A DNA stretch of 64,000 bases, from the NCBI GenBank assembly GCA_963832745.1, contig CAWHVC010000001.1, forward strand, positions 640,001 to 704,000, in the 5' to 3' direction. How positions within the stretch are numbered: the stretch's first letter is position 1; the number at the start of each line of letters is the position of its first letter. The DNA is from Candidatus Bathyarchaeota archaeon (lineage in GTDB: Archaea > Thermoproteota > Bathyarchaeia > Bathyarchaeales > Bathycorpusculaceae). Below the pieces are notes generated by a model. That model ran no database searches. It was not told where the DNA came from and saw only the letters and a list, made by a program, of their open reading frames with translations. Made by a program: the position numbers and the translations under genes. Shown here in pieces: positions 29,626 to 50,662 of the stretch.

Positions 29626-30567
29626 TTAGTCAGGCAATTCAAGATTTAACTGTTTTTTAAGGGTTTTATAGCGGTTTCGCACTGTAACTTCTGTTACGCC
29701 TGCAGCTTCAGCAATGTCTTTTTGGGTTTTCTTTTCATTGTTCTGTAAACATGCAATGTAAAGGGCAGCAGCAGCAAGTCCCATCGGGTCTTTGCCGGCG
29801 GCAGCACGTTTGCGTCTTGCTTCTCGCAGAATGTTTATGGCTGCGCCTTGAGTTTTTCCAGAGATTCCAGTTTTTTCTGCAATTTTTGAAACATAAGTTA
29901 ATGGGTCAGCAATTGGCATGTGCACTTCAAGTTCTCGTAGAAGTAACCGGTAACATCTTGCAACATCTTTCTTGTCAACAAGACTTGCCTCAGCGATTTC
30001 ACGTAGTGTACGTGGTGTTCCGCTTCCACGGCAAGCAGCATAAAGGGATGCAGCTGCGATGGCGGCGATTGATCTGCCTCGAACGAGACCCTTGTCAAGT
30101 GCTTTTCTGTAAACGACGGCTGCTTTTTCTTTAATTGGTGGCGGAATGTAGACTTTGTCAGATAGACGGTCTAGTTCGGCCATTGCTTGTGCGAGGTTTC
30201 TGTCAATGGATGAGTGGACTCTGCTTCGGATTTGCCATTTTCTTAGACGCCACATTTGCAGCCTTGTGGATAAGGGCAGTTTTCTTCCGAAAGCGTCCCT
30301 GTCTACTTGGCTAATAGCTGTTGATAAGCCTTTATCATGAACTGAGTAAGATGTTGGAACACCAACTCGACTTCTGGAAGCTTTTTCTTCTTGTGTGAAC
30401 GCGCGCCATTCAGGTCCTTTATCCATCATTTGTTCGTATAAGACCAGGCCGCAGTCTCCGCAGACGGTTTCGCCGGTATCGTAATCGTGGACTAAGTTGT
30501 CACTACCGCATTCGGGGCACTTGTCAGCTAAGCGCTGTGATGTCTTGGGTGCTTCTTTTTTGCTCAA
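29626..30567 (-). CDS. tfb: Transcription initiation factor TFB
   Basis: CPECGS...CGDCG Zn ribbon, GPEWRAF B-reader, two cyclin repeats, GVTEVTVRNRY. Confidence 0.97.
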   Translation of the reverse strand: MSKKEAPKTSQRLADKCPECGSDNLVHDYDTGETVCGDCGLVLYEQMMDKGPEWRAFTQEEKASRSRVGVPTSYSVHDKGLSTAISQVDRDAFGRKLPLSTRLQMWRLRKWQIRSRVHSSIDRNLAQAMAELDRLSDKVYIPPPIKEKAAVVYRKALDKGLVRGRSIAAIAAASLYAACRGSGTPRTLREIAEASLVDKKDVARCYRLLLRELEVHMPIADPLTYVSKIAEKTGISGKTQGAAINILREARRKRAAAGKDPMGLAAAALYIACLQNNEKKTQKDIAEAAGVTEVTVRNRYKTLKKQLNLELPD

Positions 30568-30896: not shown

Positions 30897-30972
30897 AGCC
30901 CGGTGGTGTAGTGGTCAAGCATAGTGGGCTTTGGACCCGCCGACGAGAGTTCGAATCTCTCCCGGGCTACCA
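30897..30972 (+). tRNA. tRNA-Gln (anticodon TTG)
   Basis: Acceptor AGCCCGG/CCGGGCT, anticodon arm GTGGG-CT-TTG-GA-CCCGC, GAGAG-TTCGAAT-CTCTC T-arm, ends ACCA. Confidence 0.95.
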
Positions 30973-32165: not shown

Positions 32166-33185
32166 TTACTCTCGCACAACGCGTTCATTATTAGACGTGT
32201 CTGCGCTACATGAATCTATGTCGTTAGGAGATGCCACAATTTCTGTGATATATAACCAAGAGTTGCGCCAACCTTTTGAGGATTTACTGAGGTACTCTTG
32301 GGGGTATTGATAGATAACTCTACAATCAGGATGTTCTATTGCAAAAAAGCAACTACCCAATGACATGGGTTTTGTCCCGAGCGGTGCAATTGAGAAATTA
32401 TATTTCTCGTTATATTCATAATATATGTCTTCTAAAACATCTCTTGTCTCGAAGGGGTCTATTGCTGGAGCATAAGTCAAATTCTTAAAAATTTCTTCAT
32501 CAATCAATAATTCCTTGTTGTTCAAAATACTCATGTCTTTGAAAATCGGTTGATACGCTGGGAATCCGTTAATAGGGATTGTTAGATCAGGGTTAATTTC
32601 ATTGTTAATAGCTACGGACCTACTTCCTTCAAAACCAATGAGTATAGCTAAGGCATCTTTTTTACGAGGAGTTCGCTTGCCTGAGTAACTGGGCAGGTCT
32701 TTTGTATCTACTGTACCTTTGGTAAGGTTACTATATGTTTCAGGCTCTGTATAAATGAATCCAAGTCTATTTGTAGTAACGGTTGATAAGTGCTTAATTA
32801 GTAGGAAAAAATAAGGTTTTACCATAACCGAAAAGTCAACAACAATGTTTTTGTGGTCAAATTTTTCATAATTAGCAACAAGATACCGTTTGAACTCTAA
32901 TAAACCACTTATTTCATTGTACAGATCGACTTTAAGCTTTAAGTCCGAGGGCTTAATTTTAAACGATTCATCGAATTCGTCCTCACTTGGTGTTTTACCC
33001 GATGCTAAAACTTCGTTAAAATAGAACAAAATTTTGGTTGTAGGACGAATGCCACATTCTTCCAGAATTTTCAATCCCCGAATGTATCGCTCTTCACCGC
33101 TAATTGCGCCGATAAAAACATCGACCGTTTCGAAGTATGAACTTAACTTATTTGCAGAATCGTAAACACCATTTATATGAACCAT
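32166..33185 (-). CDS. Hypothetical protein with two Rossmann/CARF-like halves; last gene of a putative defence operon
   Basis: Parallel motifs IVVDFSVMVKP...FIYTEP and FSIAPLGTKP...VIYQYP; starts 1 nt after the ATPase stop. Confidence 0.6.
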   Translation of the reverse strand: MVHINGVYDSANKLSSYFETVDVFIGAISGEERYIRGLKILEECGIRPTTKILFYFNEVLASGKTPSEDEFDESFKIKPSDLKLKVDLYNEISGLLEFKRYLVANYEKFDHKNIVVDFSVMVKPYFFLLIKHLSTVTTNRLGFIYTEPETYSNLTKGTVDTKDLPSYSGKRTPRKKDALAILIGFEGSRSVAINNEINPDLTIPINGFPAYQPIFKDMSILNNKELLIDEEIFKNLTYAPAIDPFETRDVLEDIYYEYNEKYNFSIAPLGTKPMSLGSCFFAIEHPDCRVIYQYPQEYLSKSSKGWRNSWLYITEIVASPNDIDSCSADTSNNERVVRE

Positions 33186-33186
33186 T

Positions 33187-35226
33187 TTATTCCCCTACGA
33201 AATCCATTATCGAGGCATTTAAGCTCAAGTTTATTCGACTTTCTCGGCTCAGTCTATTTCGTGTAACCTCTTTTTCCCTCTCGGTTCCAAAAATTAACGT
33301 TTCAAGATCTTCCTTGCTGAATTGACGAATCCTTCCTCTTAATCTATAAGAAATACTGAAATAAGGTGCCAAAATATGGTTTAGGACATAAACATTGATC
33401 AAGGGGTCGGTTGTTGCTTTTCCTTTCATTGCCTTTTTCGGTTGGAGAACTGACCATTGAACTGCACAATTCAGAACTTTTCTAGCCTTTTCTGATAACG
33501 CCTCATTGTCAACGCAGAAATATGTAACTTCAGGTTCAGAAAGAACAGGGTCATTTTGCCATGAGTAAAATATTGCACCAAGCTGTTTAACAAGCGATTT
33601 TATCTCGTTTCCCCATTCTGGTATCCGTTCTATCATATCCATGTATCTTTCAGCACGAATAGTTGCACCATCCGTTTGAGCTTCAAACGACATCTTTCCA
33701 TCTTTTATTAATGAGGTTCGATCCGAGAATAGCGCAATATTAAAACTCTGATAGCATAGTTCAAGAAAATTACGAATGATTCCAGATGATAGCATGCAAT
33801 AAACGTTGAAACCGGCGTATTGCTTTTGGGTGGGTTTATTTAAACTGACTAATTGAAAAAGCAATGATAACTTGTTTTTGTCGTAAAGATTGGCATACTT
33901 TTTAAATTCCAAAGATTCCCTTTTCCCGCTAATATAAGAGGCGAACATTTTAGCGATAACTTCTGGCTCATAATTCCTACGCAGCAATAACAGGTTTAGC
34001 ATTTCCAACAGTGGTTTTTTGTCTATTAGACTATTGAATATGGCGTCTAAGGATTCGTCAAGACGATGTTTTTTATTTAAAACTTTTCCAATTTCAACGA
34101 CATGTTTTGTTTTAAGATATTGATCTAATGGATATTGATCAATTTCATTTTGAGTTAACTTTTTGTTAAATACAATTATTGTCGCTTCATCCTCTACAGG
34201 AAACTCGCCAAGAATACTTTCAATATCAGTAAACCCTTTTTCCTGCAATTCTGGAATATGTTCCAAGCGTCGCTTAGCAATCATCTTCAACAAATTTCTA
34301 TACTCTTCATTATGGGACATTAGCACATCTTCAAATCTTATCCGCCTATAATCGGCGTCTTCCATCAAAAATTCGCCCACGTTCAAGGTATCACATGTTT
34401 TAAAACCCTTTAATCTCGTGCCTATTCTAAAGGTAACAAAATTTTTGGTATGCTTGAATAATGTATTAATAATTTTCTGCTGTTGGTACTGCAAATTTTC
34501 ATACTCATCTAGTAATAATATTATTCTTTTTCCATGAAATTCGGGAAGATTTTCTTGCAAAATTTCAGGAATACCAAAAATTAGCTTCCCTGAACGGATG
34601 GGGTGCCCAGAGAAAGTTGTTTCCGTAGAAAGTGCAGCACAGTTAATAAAATCAAAGATTCTTTCAAGCTCTCGTTGGAAAAAGTCAATAGCAAAATCTA
34701 ATGAAGGCTCTTCTTGGATGATAATAGATTCATCCACTAACTTTAGAATTTCAGTGAGTATTTTTATTTCTTTACTTTTCTCGATATCGATGCACTGATT
34801 TTCCTTAAGATTCTGCCACAACATAATCATTTTTTGCCCGATAGTCAATTCAAAATAATGTTTGAATAATGTCTCCCAACCTTCGGGACTTGTATGTCTT
34901 GAATCAAAACTTGCCAGACTAGGCCCATCAAATCTATGGTAAATACCAACGTAAAGGGTTTGATTTAGAAATCCTTTGCCATCACTATTTTCACTGACAT
35001 ACTCTTTAATTTTAATCTCATTTGACATCCATTTTAGAAGCATTGTTTTGCCTGTACCTCGACCGCCCTCAAAGATTACGGGAGTATCTCCGGTGAGGTC
35101 TATACCCATCGCTTGTACACCAAATACAATTTCAGGTTGTATCCAGTACTTCAAAACATCGTCATCACCCATCAAACTCGCGTTGAATGCAGCGAAGGGA
35201 TTTCTTAGGTTAAGTTCTTCTTTCAT
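33187..35226 (-). CDS. ORC/CDC6-like (STAND-related) P-loop ATPase
   Basis: NPF N-terminus, Walker A GGRGTGKT, Walker B LLLDEYENL, SSGIIRNFLELC, C-terminal winged-helix-like region. Confidence 0.75.
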   Translation of the reverse strand: MKEELNLRNPFAAFNASLMGDDDVLKYWIQPEIVFGVQAMGIDLTGDTPVIFEGGRGTGKTMLLKWMSNEIKIKEYVSENSDGKGFLNQTLYVGIYHRFDGPSLASFDSRHTSPEGWETLFKHYFELTIGQKMIMLWQNLKENQCIDIEKSKEIKILTEILKLVDESIIIQEEPSLDFAIDFFQRELERIFDFINCAALSTETTFSGHPIRSGKLIFGIPEILQENLPEFHGKRIILLLDEYENLQYQQQKIINTLFKHTKNFVTFRIGTRLKGFKTCDTLNVGEFLMEDADYRRIRFEDVLMSHNEEYRNLLKMIAKRRLEHIPELQEKGFTDIESILGEFPVEDEATIIVFNKKLTQNEIDQYPLDQYLKTKHVVEIGKVLNKKHRLDESLDAIFNSLIDKKPLLEMLNLLLLRRNYEPEVIAKMFASYISGKRESLEFKKYANLYDKNKLSLLFQLVSLNKPTQKQYAGFNVYCMLSSGIIRNFLELCYQSFNIALFSDRTSLIKDGKMSFEAQTDGATIRAERYMDMIERIPEWGNEIKSLVKQLGAIFYSWQNDPVLSEPEVTYFCVDNEALSEKARKVLNCAVQWSVLQPKKAMKGKATTDPLINVYVLNHILAPYFSISYRLRGRIRQFSKEDLETLIFGTEREKEVTRNRLSRESRINLSLNASIMDFVGE

Positions 35227-35240
35227 GGTTTATTCATCTT

Positions 35241-36140
35241 TCAGAATTTGTGCTTTCTTTTGAAAAGGGGATACCACTTCTCACCAGAGGTTTGTCTTTC
35301 ACCCCAAATCACTGGTAGGGTATTATCAGGTATGTTGTGGTGAAAACCAACAAGCGCTTGTGAGTCTTTATAGCCCAACGCATCTTCACCCTTAAAGATA
35401 TTGTTTCCATAATAACCACAAATTGATTTTGCAGAATTGCGCTCAGTAGGGTCCTGGAATACCCATGATGTGGAATCAAATACACGGTAGCTATTGTCCA
35501 GTACTTGAGGGCAAATGACGTCAAGCCCCGTATGGTTTTTAACTTTTTCAATTGCTTTCTGTAGTGCTATGAGCGCAATAAAATGAAATTTCGTCTGAGG
35601 ACATCGATTTTTAATTGCTAGCACTTTTTTGTCCCAAAAGTCGCATGTAGTTTTACCCGTTCCCAAAAAATCGTCGATAAAAACGATATTTAGAGTGGCT
35701 AATTCGTTTGGTGAATACTCGTTTGTCAGAAACGCGTTTGGTTCTACGAATTGCATGTATGACAGTCTGTTTTCTTGTCTAAAATTATACGTTAGCATAG
35801 CGCCACTTTCGCTTAAACGACCTATGCATGAAAACCGACAACTACTCGCAAATTGAGTTATTGCGCGCTCTGTATTTAACGAGGCGTATTGAGAAGGATT
35901 ATCGATAATCCTTTGGCGCTTAAGGAGAGAAAAAGCCGCTCTGCAAAGGTAGTTTATTTCCTTTTCACCATAGTAAATGAAATTTCTGAGTAATTGTATG
36001 GCAGTCTGTTTTTCAATCGCTGACTCACAATGTTGACCTTTGAAATTTTCCATCCATGCGTCAAATATAGCATTGGTCAACCTCTTTTCCCATAGGTAAT
36101 TGTTTTTATCAACGATTTCCATAAGCAATTTTTCGGGCAT
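35241..36140 (-). CDS. Phosphoribosyltransferase-fold protein, conflict-associated type
   Basis: PRPP loop IVFIDDFLGTGKT, SESG, LGY, HNIPDNTLPVIW, WYPLFKR; ATG 36140 lies 1 nt after the dcm stop. Confidence 0.75.
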   Translation of the reverse strand: MPEKLLMEIVDKNNYLWEKRLTNAIFDAWMENFKGQHCESAIEKQTAIQLLRNFIYYGEKEINYLCRAAFSLLKRQRIIDNPSQYASLNTERAITQFASSCRFSCIGRLSESGAMLTYNFRQENRLSYMQFVEPNAFLTNEYSPNELATLNIVFIDDFLGTGKTTCDFWDKKVLAIKNRCPQTKFHFIALIALQKAIEKVKNHTGLDVICPQVLDNSYRVFDSTSWVFQDPTERNSAKSICGYYGNNIFKGEDALGYKDSQALVGFHHNIPDNTLPVIWGERQTSGEKWYPLFKRKHKF

Positions 36141-36141
36141 T

Positions 36142-37235
36142 TCAAGATTCCCCCAAAGCAGTCTGCAATTGCATTCCAATCGCTTTTGCCATAATCGGCG
36201 GGACAGCGTTCGCAATTTGTTGTTGTTGTGCTCCCAAGTTTCCGTAGAAAATGTAATCGTCTGGAAAAGATTGTAACCTTGCGGCTTCTCTGACGGACAA
36301 CCCTCTGTGCTCTTCTGGATGAATTAGCATGTTCTTACGGAAATTACTTATTACTATCGAAGGCTCGTCCCATTTTAGTCTGTAGTAAATCCATCCATGA
36401 CAATTTTCAAGATTCTTGTAATTACTCATCATGGATTTTGGGAGACTTCGCCAATTGCCTCCTTGCGGTATCAACTTATACCTTGTTATGGCTAGTTCTC
36501 TATTTTTTGAAACTTTATTATTTGTGACAGAAGATACAGAATTTTTTTGTCTCATTAATTTTTGGTAATCTGAAAGATTAGTAGTCTTTTTATAAGCGAG
36601 AACTTCAGTCGGGTTCCCATTCTCCAATGACGGCAAATCGTCTATTGCCTGCCTAACTGTCACTAAGGGTTTCCCTAATGAATCAATTAGAGAAAAATAG
36701 CCACCCTTTGCGCCTACGAATATCACGCGCTTTCTTCTTTGAGGAACGCCAAAATTCTCACTATTAATCAACCAGTAGTTTGTCTGATAACCAAGCTTTT
36801 TACTAATTTCTAAAATATCTTGTAATACCGATCCATTTGCTAAGGATTTATCCCCTCAACATTCTCAAAAATGAACATTTTTGGAGATAAGTCAGCGACG
36901 ATTCGAAAATAATGTTGATACAAGTGATTTAGAGGATTCTGGAGGTTTCTACTTTTTCTGTTGGATGTAGAAAAACCCCTACAAGGAGGACCGCCAGCAA
37001 CTAAAGAAATTTCGGAATGTCGTAAACCGCCAATCTTGAGAATTTCTGTTGAATCCACTTTTGTTATGTCGGATTCTATTACGTGCATTTTTTCATGATT
37101 CATTCCAAGCGTTGTAGCCGCTTCATGATCAATCTCAACGCCAACTCTTAGGTCAAAACCTGCTTCTGACAAGCCATGTGATAACCCCCCAGCACCAGCA
37201 AATAAATCTACAGCTATAGGTTGCGAGTTAGCCAT
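36142..37235 (-). CDS. dcm: DNA (cytosine-5) methyltransferase; one-base frameshift near 36848
   Basis: FAGAGG, GGPPC, FENV, PQRRKRV, SVREAARLQSFPD, QIANAVPP. Adding one A to an A-run joins the two ORFs (EGIKSLANGSVLQDIL). Confidence 0.9.
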
Positions 37236-37324
37236 GGCATGATCCCGGATGAAACATCAATATACACGACAATCCTTTTATCGTTTTTTATGAGCATAAT
37301 AATCAAGATCATTAGGGTATTCTA

Positions 37325-37729
37325 ATGACCGACAAATTTAGTAAAGAGAAAAGAAGTCAAATAATGTCAAAAATAAGATCGAAAAATACAGACATTGAAA
37401 TTACCTTAAGAAATGGATTGGAAAAAAACTGCATAAAATTCGAATACCAGCCAAAGCTTTTCGGTAAACCGGATTTTCTTATACCCCCTAAAATAATTGT
37501 TTTTTGCGATAGCTCATTTTGGCATGGAAGAAACTGGCAGGAACTAGACAAAAAATTACCAAAAGGTTATTGGCATGAGCATATAAAACGTAACAAAGAA
37601 AGGGATGTATTAGTCAACAAGCAGCTTACTGATCAGAACTTCGTCGTTCTTAGGTTTTGGGATTTTCAGATTAAAAAGGAAACGGAGTCTTGCATTAACA
37701 AAATTAAAGACACCCTTAGCGCCCTCTAA
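37325..37729 (+). CDS. vsr: Very short patch repair endonuclease
   Basis: RSQIMSKIRSKNT, GKPDF, FCDSSFWHG, RD, VLRFWD; divergent from dcm. Confidence 0.92.
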   Translation: MTDKFSKEKRSQIMSKIRSKNTDIEITLRNGLEKNCIKFEYQPKLFGKPDFLIPPKIIVFCDSSFWHGRNWQELDKKLPKGYWHEHIKRNKERDVLVNKQLTDQNFVVLRFWDFQIKKETESCINKIKDTLSAL

Positions 37730-37966: not shown

Positions 37967-39148
37967 ATGGGATTTGATGAATACCAATTTTTACGATATT
38001 TTATTCCAGGCAGTCTTGCTGTTATTTATATTGCCTTTTTCTTGGCCCCTTTTATAGGTGATGGGGTAATCAATAATTTTAAAGCAAGTCCAGAGGGCTT
38101 ATTAGGAATAGTGGGGGCTGCTTTTGGAGCAAGTTTAGCTATTGGATATGTTATTTACACGTTCTATGATACGTGCAGTTATAATAAAGCTGCTATGGAT
38201 TCGACGAAGCGACGAATACTACACTATCTTGAAAAACAAAAACCAGATTGGAAAAAACTTTCAGAATTTGAAAAGAAGGCGACATTGGATATGCTTTATG
38301 ATGCTTTTGATGATAGTTCAGTAAGTAATAGGGTTGCTTCAAAAGCACGCGGTATGTGGTCTCATTTCAATGCAAGAAAAGTTTGTGCAATATATGTTCC
38401 ATCTTTTTCAATTGTGTTTTCTGTTATCATAATTTTGTTTGCACATCTTATTAAACCAAATATTTTTGACTTTTCTAACTTGTATCGTTTCCTTTTACTA
38501 ATTCCTATCTGTTTGATAGTAGGTGCTGTCTCATATGTTTTGTATTATGGTGCGAATCGTCCCTATAGCGAGGCTACCACATTAGAGTATTTGTATATGC
38601 GAAGAGTTCTATCGAAATATGATAATGAATTCAACACAATGGTTGTTAATCTTAAGAAAGAAACCGATAGTAAGAATAATAACCAAGTAGAGTCTAATGA
38701 CAAAAATATGAGCTTAACTAAAAATGAAGAAATCGCAACGTATAGAATCGATTGGGCTCATCAAAGACAATTAGTAATTGTTGCTTCTTTGCTGGGTCTT
38801 GGCTTAGCGGTAGTTGAGCTTTTGTCTAATGGGTATAATGTTTTTGATAATATTGTCCTTAGAATGCTTTACTATACATTGTCAGCGCTCTTTTCAATTG
38901 GGGTTTATTCATTTTTTAAATTTGAAAAAGAAATTTTAAATTGGCAGTTTAAGCTTAGCGATGAGTGGAAAATAAAATTCGAAGATACTACATTCAAATT
39001 TTTCTTTTCAAAGGAAGGCTCTGATGTTAATTTGAAAAAAATAACAGTATTTTTGCTCTGTATAATTTGTTTATTTATTCTTATTGCATTACCCTACGCT
39101 GGGTATTTTTGTAAAAATCATTTGAATAATTTTTTATGGTTCACCTAA
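37967..39148 (+). CDS. Multi-pass membrane hypothetical protein
   Basis: 393 aa, about 7 hydrophobic segments in two blocks separated by a polar linker; very AT-rich. Confidence 0.65.
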   Translation: MGFDEYQFLRYFIPGSLAVIYIAFFLAPFIGDGVINNFKASPEGLLGIVGAAFGASLAIGYVIYTFYDTCSYNKAAMDSTKRRILHYLEKQKPDWKKLSEFEKKATLDMLYDAFDDSSVSNRVASKARGMWSHFNARKVCAIYVPSFSIVFSVIIILFAHLIKPNIFDFSNLYRFLLLIPICLIVGAVSYVLYYGANRPYSEATTLEYLYMRRVLSKYDNEFNTMVVNLKKETDSKNNNQVESNDKNMSLTKNEEIATYRIDWAHQRQLVIVASLLGLGLAVVELLSNGYNVFDNIVLRMLYYTLSALFSIGVYSFFKFEKEILNWQFKLSDEWKIKFEDTTFKFFFSKEGSDVNLKKITVFLLCIICLFILIALPYAGYFCKNHLNNFLWFT

Positions 39149-43077: not shown

Positions 43078-44532
43078 TATCTTGAAGCATCATACTTTGA
43101 TATTGATTGACAAACTCTGTTAATGAATCACCTGAAATAGTTCTGGCTATTTCAAATATTATTACGCGTCTGAAATGATGCGGAAGAGACCCTTCTCTTC
43201 TTGAGAACGCATATTGAGGGTGGTCAGTGTTGATAGAGAATGCAGCTTTTCCGCTATCGAGAACGCATTCATAACCTTCTTTACCTAAAGGTTCAAGCTC
43301 AAATTTGTATCTACTATTGCCATTCTTAATTAACCTTGGAGGCTGTTCTTTTTTCTTTTCGTTGTGTTTTATCAGGATTTTCTTCACGTTCTTTCTTTTC
43401 TTTCTGCGTTCTTCAATTTCTTTAATTGCACTCATTACTTCTTTTGCATCCGTTTCGTTTCGTGGCACGAACCAAGAAAATCCTCCCGTAATTCAGCTCC
43501 TTTCAACATATTATCTATCTGATGTCTAATAACATCATCCAAAATTCTTTTCTCCGAAACTTAACTCCTCATGGGATTGGGAAGTTTGGATTTCTTTTGT
43601 AATTTCACGGATTTTGCGTAGAATCGCTTCCTTAAATTCAATAAACTTGGGTGCTTCCTCAGAAAAACCATTCCGGGTAGCAAGAACTATGTCATCTAAT
43701 CCATCTGCGTAAAGAACACAGTATTAGCCTTGCAAGAAAGCTACCGGGACTTGTTAAGACCCTTGCTAAATCAAATATATTAGGGTCATCTGCATTAACA
43801 GTTCGCCCATGAACCTTCACATAAACACCAGCAAACTCTCCTAAAGGGCTTATCAGAATGAATTATTTTTCCTTTGATTTTTTCCAGTCAAATGCAAGTC
43901 TAAATCAATCGGAAGATTCTCTTCCACTTACTAAATCTTCTGGCCTGAGCTCTTCGTTGTTCACTGTTACTTTAAACTCGGGACTCAGCGGCATGTTTCT
44001 TGCAATTCGTCTTATTGCTTTTTATTCATGAAGGTCTTTTTTAATCCAAAAAGCATTATAGTTGTTCCATTAGGTAAGTCAGTCGATGATTCAGCTACAT
44101 TTATTCTTTTTATCACCAATAGACTTATGTGAAAATATTTTTTCAAAATCCAACATTAGAATTCTCTGAATGCCCTTTTTTCTTGTGATAATTTTGCATC
44201 TGTTACACATTACATGCATCGACAGTTTTCCGATTCCAAATTTTCCGATGGTGTATTCTTCTGAGGTTGCTTGTTTTTTTGTCTTCTCGTTTCTCGCTAT
44301 AGCCCAGCCATAGATAGTTTTCTAAGTCCTTTCTATCCATGCCGACTCCATCATCTCTAATCGTCAAACGTGCTTGAGAAAAATCAATGTCCACTTTAGT
44401 GGCATCCGCATCATAAGAATTTGATACCAATTCGTCGAGGACATAATATGCATTTTCATACAGACTTGAACTCAATGTCTGGATTAATTCCGCTCTTGCT
44501 TTGAAGGACGTACAATATTCTCTTATCGACAT
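43052..44532 (-). CDS. MORC/GHKL (HATPase_c_3) ATPase; multiple frameshifts
   Basis: LYEN...ELVSNSYDADAT, DDGVGM, GKFGIGKL (next frame), VKVHGR, ATRNGF, C-terminal SINTDHP. Confidence 0.75.
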
Positions 44533-45758: not shown

Positions 45759-45825
45759 ATGCCAGAAATAAAGAAAACTACCGAAATTTCTGATGTTCAC
45801 GAAAGTTCGAATCTCTCCCGGGCTA
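45759..45825 (+). CDS. int: Integrase N-terminal fragment int(N)
   Basis: GAGGT RBS, ATG 45759, MPEIKKTTEISDVHE-SSNLSRA; reads att in the same frame as int(C). Confidence 0.75.
45804..45825 (+). repeat. attR of element 1 (copy of the tRNA-Gln 3' end)
   Basis: Exact 22-bp match to 30948-30969. Confidence 0.92.
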
Positions 45826-45829
45826 TATC

Positions 45830-46900
45830 TACCCAGGCGCGAATTTGTACTATTTTCAAATTGACTCTCACGTAGCTCCTTAATCATCTGTTGTTTAAGA
45901 GCGGTTGTAATTTGCATAATCTGCGACTGCTCATACTGCTTCTGGTCGAAAATAGATGTTAGATTGTAGCTGTGCTTCTCTTGAGAGAATTTGTTCAGGA
46001 TTTAGTCCAATGAACGAGTAAATTCTTTTAGGATTTCAATCTTGTTTAGGTGTGTCTTTGGTTTTATGCTTAAGCCTGCGGAAATATAGACTCCACGAAG
46101 GATTTGATGCCTTTCATGCGTATATCATGATAAGTGCTGATTGTGTGTCCCATCATGTATTCGATGTAGTCTGTTTGAATGTCCAAAGATGCTAGCTGAG
46201 TTTGGAAGTATTTTCGTAGGCTGTGTGCGCGTAGGTCATAGCGTCGGCATCTGGGTTTTTCGGTTACTAGTCCAGCTTTTACGTAGAGGTTGTGGACGAT
46301 GGAATGAATTCTGCCGGTGGTTATGGGTCTGACGGTGTTGCTTTGTCCATCTCGAATTAGTGGTGAGTCATCGTTGATGATTTCGGGATGTTTTCTGCCT
46401 GTTGGGCTGCCGTGTCTACGCATGTCAAAGTAAGTTTTTAGGTATTCACTGCTTCTTGTCCAAGAAATGTATTATAGTCGTGGTATTTGCCTTGAGACAG
46501 GCTGGTACAAACCAACACCTGAACTAATTCTAAACGCTATAGCAAGATTGGGAGAGGTTTTGGTTTGTGCAGCAAGAATCAAGCAAAAGCTTGTGGCTGA
46601 AGATGGCAAATCAGAAAACTTTGGTTTGATGAGGAAGCGGGAATTGTTGAGGAGGCCAAGGGTTTTCTTAAGAATTATCCGCAACTCTTGCCCATATTAA
46701 TTGCTGATGGAGATAAAGTGGACGTTTGGAGCCAAGAAGCATTAAGACTGCTTGGAGATAACTATGTTCCCCTGGACAGATTTAGGCCATTTCTCGTTGT
46801 TGTACGCCGGTAACATTAACCGAGAAGTAGTCGTCCTTTAGGGCTACCAGACGACTACTACCATTATTCCAGATGCATTAGAAAGTCCTTTATGCGTTTT
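45830..46900 (-). pseudogene. int: Second tyrosine integrase, heavily fragmented; boundaries approximate
   Basis: RYDLRAHSLRKYFQTQL...IEYMMGHTISTYHD (H-x-x-R, H, Y) in ORF 46070-46423; flanking fragments YYTFLG and GLSIKPKT. Confidence 0.75.
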
Positions 46901-47200: not shown

Positions 47201-48444
47201 ATGATCCATGTATGCACCACAGATGGGAGAAGTCAAATCGAATGTAAGAGGTTTAGGGTGGAAAAAATGAAGGCAAAACAAAGCAAACGCGCGCTATTCG
47301 TATTAGCTCTGATATACTGTATTCTGGCCGCTAGCCTAATTGGCATATTTGCAGTGTATTCGTCTTTTGCGACTGAAACTGATGATAAAATAAAAGATCA
47401 GCAAGAAATTATCAACGATTTAACCCCAACTAATTCAGAGCAGGCAAATCTATTATCGGCAAACAATGAGAAAATTGAAGATTTGACAAATCAGGTTAGC
47501 TCTTTAAAATCAAATATTTCTGCCCAAGCTAACCAAAAGCACGCTTATGAATCAACAATTGCCAGCCTTCAAAACCAATTAGCTTCTGCAAACGCCCAAA
47601 TAAACCGTTTAAATTCTAAAGCGGAAGAGCTACAACAACAAGTAAACAACCTTATTCAAGGCAATCAGGAAAGCCTTCCAGCGCTTGTTTTTCATGTTTG
47701 CGAAAAAGGAGAAAAGTACGCTTGGGGACACCTGCCGGATACCAATTCAACGTATAACCAAATTCTTAGCCTGCTCCCAGACTACCAGGTACTAATGCTT
47801 CCCGAGTATCAAGGCAATGCTAATTGGACTGAAGAAATCACGTGGATCAGCAATAATTTTGGAGGTAAAGAGGGTATCCCGTTAATGCTTGATGTTTTTG
47901 GCGGCGGAGATGGCACAAGTCCAACGCCCATGCTTAGCACATCAGACATTTCAGCGGCAATGGCGGCTTCTAATGTTCAGTATTTGAGGGTTGCAGAAGT
48001 GATAAGCTGGCACCAAGAACACCCAGACCAACCCTTCCCCACTGACTACATCAAGAGCATTTTTGAGTTCTGCAGAACCAACAATCTAAAGCTGTTTTGG
48101 ACTGAATGGAGAATCGAAACCTTCCCAATGCTACAGACTTACCTTGAGGGTTATGAAGACATAGCAGTAGTGTCTTTCTCAACCAACTCGGAGACGCTGA
48201 GCCATCAGAGGGTTTTATGCAAATTAGCCAGACGTTTGAGCATTGGGGCGGATCAGTTCAAGCCTGGTACTGGGACACAAGAGGCAAGGATTTAATGGAT
48301 ATGCCTGCATCCTTACTTGGAGAGCACGCATTATTCGCAAAACACTTGGGCGCACAAATAATAGAGTTCGAACCCTACTGGTACTTCTTTAACAACGGAC
48401 AAGCCAATGACAACCTCAGACTATTGAAGGGTTTCTTGATTTGA
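47201..48444 (+). CDS. Membrane-anchored coiled-coil protein with a C-terminal globular domain; frameshift near 48200
   Basis: TM, ~90-aa Q/N/L heptads, then an acidic/aromatic domain continuing in ORF 48217-48444 (HWGGSVQAWYW...EFEPYWYFF). Start probably MKAKQ at ~47267. Confidence 0.6.
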
Positions 48445-48784: not shown

Positions 48785-50662
48785 ATGAGGCTTTTTGCAG
48801 GCAGCTCCCAACAGTTCGTCCAGGACACTATACAAAATCAAATCGCTGAAAAACTAAAGCTCGCATTCTTCAATTACTTCCGTTATTACCCTTCACCCAG
48901 CGAAATTAACTCTTGGCGAAACTCGCTAAGGGCAATCTCACTTGTCTTTACCCATGCCCGCTTAACAGACCAAGGAGTCATCCTCGAGTACCAGCTGCCC
49001 ATGACTTCTAAACGACTTGACATCTTAATTTGCGGAAAAGATGCCAATACCCGGGACAACGCAGTGATTATTGAGCTTAAGCAGTGGGATCGCTGTGAAG
49101 ATGCACTGGGCAAAAACGAAGTAATCACTTGGGTGGGTGGCAGAAAAGAACTGCTCCATCCTTCAGTTCAGGTGCAACAATACCAGCGCTACTTAGAAGA
49201 TACGCACACCGCATTCTATGAAGGACCAAATCCTGTAATCTTAAACGCTTGCGCCTATCTGCATAACTACAATGTTTATTCAGATGATGTTCTGTTTTCC
49301 AATAAATTTATTGACGCGCTTTCGAATTCACCTCTTTTCACCGCTGATGATGTCAACAAGTTGTCAGGGTACTTAACCACAAAGTTGGATATGGGCGCTG
49401 GCATGGATGTGCTAAAACGCATTGAAGAAAGTAAGTATCGTCCCAGCAAGAAACTCATGGATCATGTAGGCAACGTGATTAAGGGCATCCCTGAGTACAT
49501 TCTGTTAGATGAGCAACAAATTGTCTATGATAGCGTGTTCTCTTGTGCCAGAGCAGGTTATCATGATAAGCAAAAAACTGTGTTGATAATCAAGGGTGGA
49601 CCGGGAACAGGCAAATCCGTTATAGCAATCAACCTTATGGCTGATCTGCTGTTGCAAGGCTACAACACTCAGTACGCAACGGGGTCAAGAGCATTTACGG
49701 AAACGCTTAAGCGGATAGTTAAATCGCGAGGCGCTGCTCAATTCAAGTATTTTAATAGCTACACCGAAGCTCAGGATAACGAAATCGACGTGTTAATTGC
49801 CGACGAAGCCCACCGCCTTAGGCAAACCAGCTTTAACAGGTTCACACCCAAAGAAAAACGCACAAACGTTCCCCAAATTGAGGAATTGCTAAAAGCCTCA
49901 AAGGTCGCTGCATTCTTCATCGACGATGACCAAATCGTGCGGCCAGGCGAAATAGGCTCCGTCCAATACATCAAAGAATACGCCAATCGAAATAACTGCA
50001 AAGTTTTTGAGTACGAGCTTGAAGCCCAATTCCGCTGTAACGGTTCAGACGCGTTTGTCAACTGGATAAACAACACGTTAGGCATCAAACGGACAGCTAA
50101 TGTCATCTGGGACCAACATGAAGAATTCGACCTTAAAATAATGCAAAGCCCCCAAGAACTTGAAGATGCAATAAGAGAAAAAGTCCAAGCCGGCTACACA
50201 GGAAGGCTAATGGCTGGCTTCTGCTGGCCATGGTCAGACCCAGACAAAGAAGGAAACCTTCAAAACGACGTAAAAATCGGCGACTACCAACGCCCATGGA
50301 ACGCCAAACCAGAATCAAAAATACTCGCCGCTGGAATCCCAAAATCAAACCTCTGGGCATACGACCCAAACGGCATAGACCAAATAGGCTGCGTATACAC
50401 CGCCCAAGGATTCGAATTCGACTACGCAGGCATAATAATTGGCAAAGACCTCACCTACAACTTTGACAAGCAACAATGGACAGGAAACCCAGCCTACTCA
50501 GCAGATGGCGTTGTAAGACGAGCAAAAGAAAGATTCACAGACTTAGTCAAGAACACGTACAGGGTCTTATTGTCAAGAGGCATGAAAGGATGCTACATCT
50601 ACTTCATGGACAAAGACACAGAACGATTCTTCAAATCAAGAATAGAAAAGGGATTAAAATGA
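48785..50662 (+). CDS. DUF2075 (Schlafen group 3-like) nuclease-helicase
   Basis: LEYQLP..SKRLD...IIELKQW nuclease-like N-terminus, GGPGTGKS, DEAHRL, QFRC, GCVYTAQGFEFDY, NTYRVLLSRG. Confidence 0.85.
   Translation: MRLFAGSSQQFVQDTIQNQIAEKLKLAFFNYFRYYPSPSEINSWRNSLRAISLVFTHARLTDQGVILEYQLPMTSKRLDILICGKDANTRDNAVIIELKQWDRCEDALGKNEVITWVGGRKELLHPSVQVQQYQRYLEDTHTAFYEGPNPVILNACAYLHNYNVYSDDVLFSNKFIDALSNSPLFTADDVNKLSGYLTTKLDMGAGMDVLKRIEESKYRPSKKLMDHVGNVIKGIPEYILLDEQQIVYDSVFSCARAGYHDKQKTVLIIKGGPGTGKSVIAINLMADLLLQGYNTQYATGSRAFTETLKRIVKSRGAAQFKYFNSYTEAQDNEIDVLIADEAHRLRQTSFNRFTPKEKRTNVPQIEELLKASKVAAFFIDDDQIVRPGEIGSVQYIKEYANRNNCKVFEYELEAQFRCNGSDAFVNWINNTLGIKRTANVIWDQHEEFDLKIMQSPQELEDAIREKVQAGYTGRLMAGFCWPWSDPDKEGNLQNDVKIGDYQRPWNAKPESKILAAGIPKSNLWAYDPNGIDQIGCVYTAQGFEFDYAGIIIGKDLTYNFDKQQWTGNPAYSADGVVRRAKERFTDLVKNTYRVLLSRGMKGCYIYFMDKDTERFFKSRIEKGLK

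Follow-up and report, generated by a model that had tools for sequence, protein, structure and literature searches.

The closest described relative of the locus reported here is an unnamed, already catalogued cassette, in which a DNA methylase accompanies a phosphoribosyltransferase (PRTase, PF24390), an ATPase (PF24389) and a CARF6-clade protein (PADLOC PDLC01910-01924), and which is carried for example by IncR and other conjugative Klebsiella plasmids. We analysed a stretch of 64,000 nucleotides (nt) from Candidatus Bathyarchaeota archaeon (GCA_963832745.1, CAWHVC010000001.1, positions 640,001-704,000), called the window throughout, for a cassette of this kind at 32166-37729. The window shares the families of the catalogued cassette above curated cut-offs, as well as its gene order, its tight spacing and an adjacent DNA methylase. 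In the common form of the catalogued cassette an N6-adenine (N6A) methylase follows the CARF gene, whereas the window has a frame-shifted C5 methylase together with Vsr. We regard the locus as a decayed copy, archaeal and of the C5/Vsr type, of a cassette that is known but uncharacterised.

An earlier note on this DNA had stated that similar triads are predicted computationally in bacteria and that no methylase-coupled archaeal version is known to be characterised. The triad is indeed catalogued computationally, in Pfam and PADLOC, and no characterised methylase-coupled version was found in the literature searched. That search likewise found no functional test or description of the four-gene cassette, and an earlier description of the methylase link is possible. 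The names 'CARF6' and 'PRTase-CE' probably go back to Makarova et al. 2020, Burroughs et al. 2015 and Burroughs & Aravind 2020, where the link to a methylase may have been described before. The portions covered of Kaur et al. 2020, Makarova 2014, CoCoNuTs, the STAND survey, DefensePredictor, the domain-centric screen, Domainator and the modularity-network preprint hold no relevant passage on the cassette. The Ophion PRTase of the modularity-network preprint belongs to another system.

Several characterised systems resemble the cassette in part. Type II restriction-modification (R-M) systems of the dcm-vsr (or dcm-Mig glycosylase) kind likewise set a C5 methylase beside a T:G mismatch repair enzyme, but in the cassette the triad of PRTase, ATPase and CARF protein appears to stand in the place of the restriction endonuclease. 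BREX is methylase-linked, has no nuclease and tolerates loss of its methylase, and the fold of the cassette ATPase is like that of BrxC (9zll_A, Z 9.7, 326 aligned residues, rmsd 7.0; 9zdx_A, Z 9.0). No PglZ, PglX or BrxC profile of PADLOC was matched among the seven scanned proteins, however, and the cassette differs from BREX in having small Type II-like methylases, a CARF sensor and a PRTase. The sensors of type III CRISPR and CBASS systems (Can1, Csm6, Cap4, Cap5) carry two CARF-like Rossmann domains per chain, as the cassette protein does, but the latter is without a fused nuclease or other effector. Neither Cas10 nor a CD-NTase was found in the cassette genes or the scanned open reading frames (ORFs) of the surrounding island, the rest of the genome not having been searched for them.

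Type III-A retrons share the PRTase. PF24390 is the family given for the neighbours of type III-A1 retrons (PMC13712802, available portion), and the window PRTase matches the PADLOC model PRTase_III-A for type III-A retrons (E 1.3e-44). In Retron-Eco11, a type III-A3 retron, activation of the PRTase effector lowers phosphoribosyl pyrophosphate (PRPP) by about 50% (PMC12746101, available portion). The controller is different, being an ATPase-CARF pair with a methylase in the cassette rather than multicopy single-stranded DNA; Pfam detected no reverse transcriptase domain in the genes flanking the PRTase (dcm and the ATPase), while non-coding RNA was not searched for. In the PUA-Calcineurin-CE-HAD system we find a nucleotide-pool effector, a methylation-derived trigger and a link to methylases without nucleases, but also a PUA sensor, another effector and no ATPase, and the tested example uses the host Dam (bioRxiv 10.64898/2026.01.15.699771, available portion).

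Genes of the cassette and their predicted products

The genes of the window cassette, with the evidence for each, are the following.

32166..33185, minus strand: gene for a tandem-CARF/SAVED-like protein of 339 amino acids (aa) (PADLOC CARF6 and fold match)
33187..35226, minus strand: gene for an ORC/CDC6-like AAA+ ATPase, 679 aa (Pfam PF24389, invariant residues and fold match)
35241..36140, minus strand: PRTase-CE gene, 299 aa counted from its ATG (PF24390 and PADLOC PRTase_III-A)
36142..36855, minus strand: C-part of dcm from motif VIII onward, in another frame than the N-part (PF00145, clade dcm hidden Markov model (HMM) and alignment)
36840..37235, minus strand: N-part of dcm, running from motif I to ENV and cut short by a premature TAG (PF00145, sequence and alignment)
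37236..37324, no strand: divergent dcm-vsr intergenic region, 89 bp (from the gene coordinates)
37325..37729, plus strand: vsr, a very-short-patch T:G mismatch endonuclease, 134 aa (TIGR00632, PF03852)

All cassette genes lie on the minus strand, with gaps of 1 nt between dcm and the PRTase gene, 14 nt between the PRTase and ATPase genes and 1 nt between the ATPase and CARF genes; vsr alone is on the plus strand, 89 bp from the dcm ATG at 37235. The coordinates thus reproduce the gene order, the gaps and the head-to-head vsr reported in the earlier note. Its assignment of the triad holds as well (PF24390, PF24389, and CARF6 with a tandem-CARF fold), and the three ORFs downstream of dcm are intact, with all residues that are invariant in their families retained. 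The note had further proposed that no restriction nuclease is present. Pfam and PADLOC scans of the locus genes, which it had suggested, called the triad families and detected no nuclease domain, cryptic or otherwise, except Vsr, and none is seen in the structural models of the CARF protein and the ATPase.

The PRTase is a PRTase-CE protein (Pfam PF24390, E 2.9e-57, 194.9 bits against a cut-off of 27). Its PRPP-loop motif is intact, and D156 and D157 are invariant in an alignment of 55 sequences. A contact with NCBIfam DS32_1 (E 0.0037) was rejected as membership, at 16.5 bits being far under the cut-off of 250. None of the PRTase, the ATPase and the CARF protein has a sequence relative in the PDB below E 0.01; a profile of 55 cassette PRTases has as its best PDB sequence match a uracil PRTase, marginally (E 0.013).

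The ATPase matches Pfam PF24389 over profile positions 1-569 of 571 (E 1e-101, 341.9 bits), and has no match among PADLOC models or in NCBIfam. Walker A spans G54-T61 and Walker B is D240-E241, with G54, G57, G59, K60, T61, D240 and E241 invariant. The AlphaFold2 model (pLDDT 86.9) ends in a winged-helix-like module. By VIA-align its best match over model residues 10-625 is 2qen_A (Z 12.1, 329 aligned), an archaeal AAA+ protein with a terminal winged helix, followed by ORC/Cdc6 (Z 10.2-11.0), MuB, TnsC, Avs3 (9.8) and BrxC (Z 9.0-9.7); Foldseek returned RdrA and BrxC at a TM-score of about 0.2. The modelled fold is ORC/Cdc6/STAND-like, and with its winged-helix-like end the ATPase probably binds DNA.

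The third protein matches PADLOC CARF6 (PDLC01922, E 1.7e-60) and has no NCBIfam match. VIA-align matched its AlphaFold2 model (pLDDT 90.3, pTM 0.89) to Can1, a nuclease with two CARF domains (6sce_A, Z 14.1, 232 aligned, rmsd 3.6), to Csm6 (9w3u_A, Z 10.9) and to the SAVED domains of Cap4/Cap5 (Z 8.4-8.9), a clearer result than that of Foldseek, which gave low-TM matches to tandem-Rossmann proteins only (USP, KaiC, Cam1). As modelled, its single chain holds two CARF-like domains and no effector domain fused to them, and the protein probably binds a nucleotide ligand. Its invariant residues are R33, Y145, P148, Y151, G184, P209 and G270.

We also predicted a complex of ATPase residues 1-660 with the CARF protein. 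The ipSAE of the pair is 0.64, the best of three controls reaching 0.00; the mark against which ipSAE was read is attained by 58 of the 80 solved complexes, as against 2 of the 110 mismatched pairs, counts that apply only approximately here since we supplied our own alignments. Contacts agree between runs by at least 66%, and partner pLDDT is at least 80. On the ATPase side the predicted interface comprises 98-110, 128-135 and 180-201, including the conserved R98, G101 and P102. On the CARF side it comprises the inter-domain hairpin 160-174, away from the invariant CARF residues, which the model would leave free for a ligand. Binding of the ATPase to the CARF protein is thus supported by the model.

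Methylase linkage across related loci

To place the window cassette among its relatives, a profile of ATPase homologues was built from 116 hits, all PF24389, and 160 related loci were collected, 80 kept of 167 in species genomes and 80 kept of 210 in metagenomes. Scanning with HMMs made from the window proteins and iterated once identified an ATPase gene at 159 of the loci, a PRTase gene at 147 and a CARF gene at 146. The 13 loci without a PRTase call all have less than 700 nt upstream and the 14 without a CARF gene all have less than 400 nt downstream; the loci that miss a gene all end at a contig edge, and none with enough flanking sequence has an incomplete triad. PRTase, ATPase and CARF genes follow one another in this order and on one strand in 80/80 genome loci, and in every locus among the matches listed in the accessory-gene scan.

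Neighbouring ORFs no shorter than 120 aa and no farther than 3 kb away were clustered and their representatives searched with Pfam and PADLOC. The commonest neighbours of the cassette are DNA methylases, and they fall into three classes: an N6_Mtase type (PF02384) directly after the CARF gene, an N6_N4_Mtase (PF01555) before the PRTase gene, and the C5 class. A methylase lies within 3 kb in 135 of the 139 loci that could be evaluated (95 N6A, 21 N4/N6 and 19 C5), the other 21 of the 160 being too short to judge. The methylase is therefore a component of the system and not a chance neighbour, a coupling that the earlier note had suspected and that proves stronger than it suggested. With HMMs built from the near flanks, 141 methylase ORFs were hit in 713 kb of near flank and 2 in 600 kb of far flank. 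Seven further loci, from one Klebsiella plasmid and six viral contigs, all carry a methylase. On the ATPase tree (FastTree, 142 rows, 19 loci with split or truncated ATPases left out) only three changes of methylase class are needed, and in each of the three clades the methylase and the triad diverge in parallel. Some N6A methylases that appeared split, and were considered as broken genes, are second, separate methylase genes. Apart from the window, a possibly truncated methylase beside an intact triad occurs in no more than 2 of some 135 loci, and a broken triad beside an intact methylase in 5 loci, counts that are too small to conclude from.

The effector end of the cassette is less constant. 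A TIR domain is fused to 24 of the 116 ATPase homologues, and N-terminal fusions of TIR, Metallophos and ParA-like domains were confirmed, which marks the PRTase as an exchangeable effector on a core of ATPase, CARF protein and methylase. The ATPase of one cassette, of 1022 aa (L156:659-3727; L numbers are our handles for loci), has an extra NAD-binding Rossmann-like stretch at residues 821-964 (AdoHcyase_NAD, 1.3e-5, just below cut-off).

The window falls in a supported group of eight on the ATPase tree, of which seven carry dcm and one is too short to judge; its nearest ATPase, from L089, is 64% identical. Of the evaluable loci whose ATPase is at least 37% identical to that of the window, 12/13 have dcm. 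It takes four placements (upstream co-oriented, downstream convergent, downstream co-oriented and upstream opposed), and in 11 of the 19 dcm loci it precedes the PRTase gene on the same strand, at a distance of -40 to +29 nt. All but one of these 19 loci also have a T:G repair gene, vsr in 7 and a HhH-GPD/EndoIII-like glycosylase gene in 11, the remaining locus being a contig of 2,970 nt. Wherever vsr occurs in related loci it accompanies a C5 methylase (7/7) and no other class. Within the C5 clade the HhH-GPD/EndoIII-like gene takes the place of vsr at L002:4091-4984 and 13 more loci (PADLOC 'Type II nicking endonuclease', 4.2e-44), and its product is presumably a T:G mismatch glycosylase. 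Taxa of the C5 branch are Methanophagales, Methanoregula, Aenigmatarchaeota, Woesearchaeota, Caldisericota and Planctomycetia; the pairing of a C5 methylase with a T:G repair gene is specific to the window's clade, a branch made up mainly of archaea and candidate phyla.

Two genes of pyrimidine metabolism accompany part of the loci. A full-length flavin thymidylate synthase, ThyX (PF02511, 1e-64), lies inside or against the cassette in 23/160 loci, often overlapping a cassette gene (for example L088:1859-2593, L107:6840-7463 and L082:7240-7941). By methylase class these are 12 dcm, 6 N4/N6 and 2 N6A loci, 2 in which no methylase was found and where ThyX sits in the position of the methylase, and 1 too short to judge. 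A dUTPase/dCTP-deaminase-like gene (PF00692, 5.9e-31) is present in 9 N6A loci and 1 unevaluable locus (for example L073:11774-12331 and L023:6406-6897). Both genes hint at a link to pyrimidine deoxynucleotide pools. A search of the window for ThyX, HhH-GPD and dUTPase-like genes found none.

The broken dcm and the tRNA-Gln island

In the window, dcm adjoins the PRTase gene 1 nt upstream in two overlapping frames rather than as one ORF. The N-part starts at the ATG at 37235 and ends ...ENVEGINP*, and the C-part is open from 36855 to the stop codon at 36142..36144. A change of frame by one base falls at a run of four G at 36852-36855, a point across which intact dcm homologues align uninterrupted. 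On the Pfam profile PF00145 (length 324) the N-part covers positions 4-114 and the C-part 142-323, and the C-part matches the clade dcm HMM with E 1.6e-102. The divergent vsr matches TIGR00632 (E 2.9e-25) and PF03852 (E 4.1e-17). Thus, of the earlier claim that dcm leads the operon, the position, the orientation and the 1-nt gap stand, but the gene is not a single ORF. The window copy is probably inactive or on its way out, since its methylase is frame-shifted.

The only other C5-methylase locus of the same genome (L169; G000:C2:100300-103300) consists of several short ORFs, and the HhH-GPD-like gene next to it is in two pieces; the rest of the window's genome holds no intact PF00145 gene. Because this second methylase and its repair gene are fragmented too, either the genome has lost two dcm-plus-repair modules or the assembly has indel errors. 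The working model that the earlier note had put forward, in which methylation marks self and the triad responds, cannot at present apply to this particular copy, with dcm frame-shifted and the other C5-methylase locus in pieces. Its suggestions that the ATPase senses unmethylated DNA and that the PRTase makes a signal are inferences.

The cassette lies in a tRNA-integrated element, as the earlier note had recognised. The features that place it are these.

29626..30567: TFIIB gene, by which the host is shown to be an archaeon
30897..30972, plus strand: tRNA-Gln(TTG) (ARAGORN), whose 3' end, 30943-30969, is the left attachment (att) repeat
45799..45825, plus strand: right att repeat and island end, 26/27 identical to the tRNA-Gln 3' end

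The 22-mer core of the 27-nt att repeats has two exact copies, with none expected (100 shuffles), and the repeat of the tRNA-Gln 3' end at 45799-45825 therefore bounds an integrated island of 14.9 kb. Its G+C is 0.35-0.37, against 0.39-0.47 in the flanks. Just beyond the right att repeat is an integrase fragment of 117 aa (46070-46423, minus strand; PF00589, 2.5e-5, below cut-off), and within the island a GHKL-ATPase (HATPase_c_3) fragment of 109 aa (44203-44532, minus strand). Both look like remnants and, with the frame-shifted dcm, give the island a run-down look. Next to vsr lies a gene for a multi-pass membrane protein of 393 aa (37967-39148, plus strand), with weak matches to BA5345_fam (3.1e-5) and PADLOC CARF_TM (0.004). 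Neither this protein nor the island ORFs of 119, 156, 206 and 289 aa have a homologue in any of the 160 related loci, and they are therefore not parts of the cassette. Just past the island is a Schlafen group 3 helicase-domain protein of 625 aa (48785-50662, plus strand; PF09848, 1.1e-89), which may be another defence-type gene; a coiled-coil protein of 364 aa (47201-48295) is its neighbour.

The cassette is present in a single copy in the window's genome. Its ATPase was found in 1/201 genomes of the order, the window's own, and in 0/17 of the same genus, showing that the cassette was acquired horizontally. Elsewhere it occurs on 157 plasmid records, of which 129 are from Klebsiella and 137 are conjugative. 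It is rare in phage collections, with two records there and six IMG/VR contigs. The N6A cassette is common on conjugative Klebsiella plasmids with resistance genes, such as the K. pneumoniae IncR plasmid of L162. There it is annotated as a tRNA methyltransferase and hypothetical proteins, and RefSeq labels the copies on E. coli transconjugant plasmids 'hypothetical protein (x3) | N-6 DNA methylase'.

How the cassette may work

With moderate confidence, we favour the view that the locus holds, in decayed form, a conflict cassette of four genes that is linked to methylation, has no nuclease and works as an immune system. The methylase would mark the host's own DNA, as its near-obligatory linkage and the T:G repair gene accompanying the C5 type suggest; in the C5 version Vsr would repair the mismatches that arise by deamination of 5-methylcytosine. 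The ATPase and the CARF protein may together form a sensing switch. A trigger, either unmarked foreign DNA or a nucleotide derived from the infection, would act on this switch and turn on the PRTase, which in turn would consume PRPP or upset nucleotide pools, so that replication of the invader, and possibly the cell itself, is halted. This output is proposed by analogy with the sibling PRTase family of type III-A3 retrons. The logic would be akin to that of BREX, where a methylase is paired with an ORC/Cdc6-like ATPase and no nuclease, joined to an effector of the abortive-infection type.

Several observations weigh against this view. The defence role is inferred from gene context, and the PRPP precedent concerns PRTase-CE_3, a sibling of PF24390 (PMC13712802 and PMC12746101, available portions). 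The cassette encodes no cyclase that could supply a CARF ligand, and the model leaves unexplained both ThyX, in 23 loci, and the dUTPase/dCTP-deaminase-like genes, in 10. Four evaluable loci (L086, L122, L142 and L145) have no methylase by three HMMs. The contrast in methylase hits between near and far flanks is somewhat inflated, the methylase HMMs having been built from near flanks. Finally, in the window dcm is broken while the triad is intact, and the genome offers no other intact PF00145 gene. A triad that attacked unmarked self DNA should make this state harmful; it could be borne only with a methylase that restriction requires as well, as in BREX, with a break that happened very recently or is a sequencing error, or with a triad that has silently died. 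With the triad intact while both C5-methylase loci are broken, simple restriction of unmethylated self DNA is unlikely, save in the case of an artefact or of a very recent break.

If the methylated nucleotides themselves were the alarm, a cell could lose the methylase without harm, which would fit the state of the window. We consider it possible, though rather unlikely, that methylated (deoxy)nucleotides or oligonucleotides released from a virus-degraded chromosome bind the CARF protein, which would act through the ATPase on the PRTase to abort the infection, with no reading of DNA sequence needed. The third protein is a stand-alone nucleotide-sensor fold in a cassette without a cyclase, within clades the methylase keeps its class and diverges together with the CARF gene, and genes of pyrimidine nucleotides (ThyX, dUTPase-like) ride in the cassette, all of which fit this idea. 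A precedent exists in PUA-Cal-HAD, which is triggered by Dam-derived m6-dAMP and whose PUA family often goes with N6-adenine methylases in the absence of restriction enzymes (bioRxiv 10.64898/2026.01.15.699771, available portion). However, the ligands in solved CARF/SAVED structures are, going by the titles of those structures, cyclic or linear oligoadenylates and cyclic di- or trinucleotides, not methylated mononucleotides, and an ATPase of the ORC/Cdc6 kind that ends in a winged helix suggests a reading of the DNA itself. The same idea can be drawn more sharply, in a form that we hold for unlikely: a private methylase, producing N6-methyladenine, N4-methylcytosine or 5-methylcytosine according to clade, would label the host, the CARF protein would have evolved for the matching methylated nucleotide or oligonucleotide from the shredded chromosome, and the CARF protein seated on a helical insert of the ATPase would free the effector, be it a PRTase, TIR, metallophosphatase or membrane protein. 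If true, such listening for a barcode would mean a new ligand class for CARF/SAVED and a new immune use of DNA methylation.

The presence of the cassette on 157 plasmid records (137 conjugative), its patchy, horizontally moved distribution and the rarity of truncated methylases beside intact triads would also suit post-segregational killing, with the methylase as antidote, the triad as poison, and the stabilisation of plasmids and islands, rather than the stopping of viruses, as the main role. We find this improbable: the window keeps an intact triad beside a broken methylase, the census numbers are small and include the five loci with a broken triad and an intact methylase, and classical R-M systems are addictive as well, so that defence stays compatible. 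It seems more improbable still that the cassette has no immune role and that the PRTase, ThyX, the dUTPase/dCTP-deaminase-like protein, the methylase and the glycosylase form a nucleotide or DNA-modification pathway, for example one that makes or handles a modified pyrimidine. ThyX (23/160 loci) and dUTPase-like genes (10/160) do often overlap cassette genes, and the profile of 55 PRTases is marginally nearest to a uracil PRTase, but the accessory genes are missing from most loci, the window included, the three methylase classes are chemically different, and the ATPase family swaps its PRTase for TIR or Metallophos domains, as is typical of immune effectors. Least credible is that dcm-vsr is an unrelated, decaying orphan methylase module that happens to lie beside the triad in a defence island. 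A broken dcm next to an intact triad and the second decayed dcm-plus-glycosylase module of this genome would fit, but the adjacency of a methylase in 135/139 evaluable loci contradicts it, as does the recurrence of dcm in 12/13 evaluable clade loci, in four arrangements that include 11/19 upstream and co-oriented at -40 to +29 nt.

Under the immune reading that we favour, the near-invariant combination of a methylase, an ATPase, a nucleotide sensor and a nucleotide-pool enzyme, with no nuclease detected, points to a self/non-self discrimination outside both classical restriction and characterised signalling. The cassette is widespread, from archaea to conjugative Klebsiella plasmids, yet is 'hypothetical' in reference annotation, and at about 5 kb it is small enough for direct testing. 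The C5 branch indicates that the class of methylase is interchangeable, and we take methylation in vivo there to be real enough to need a T:G repair gene. The window adds one natural copy that appears to tolerate the loss of its methylase, which constrains the mechanism.

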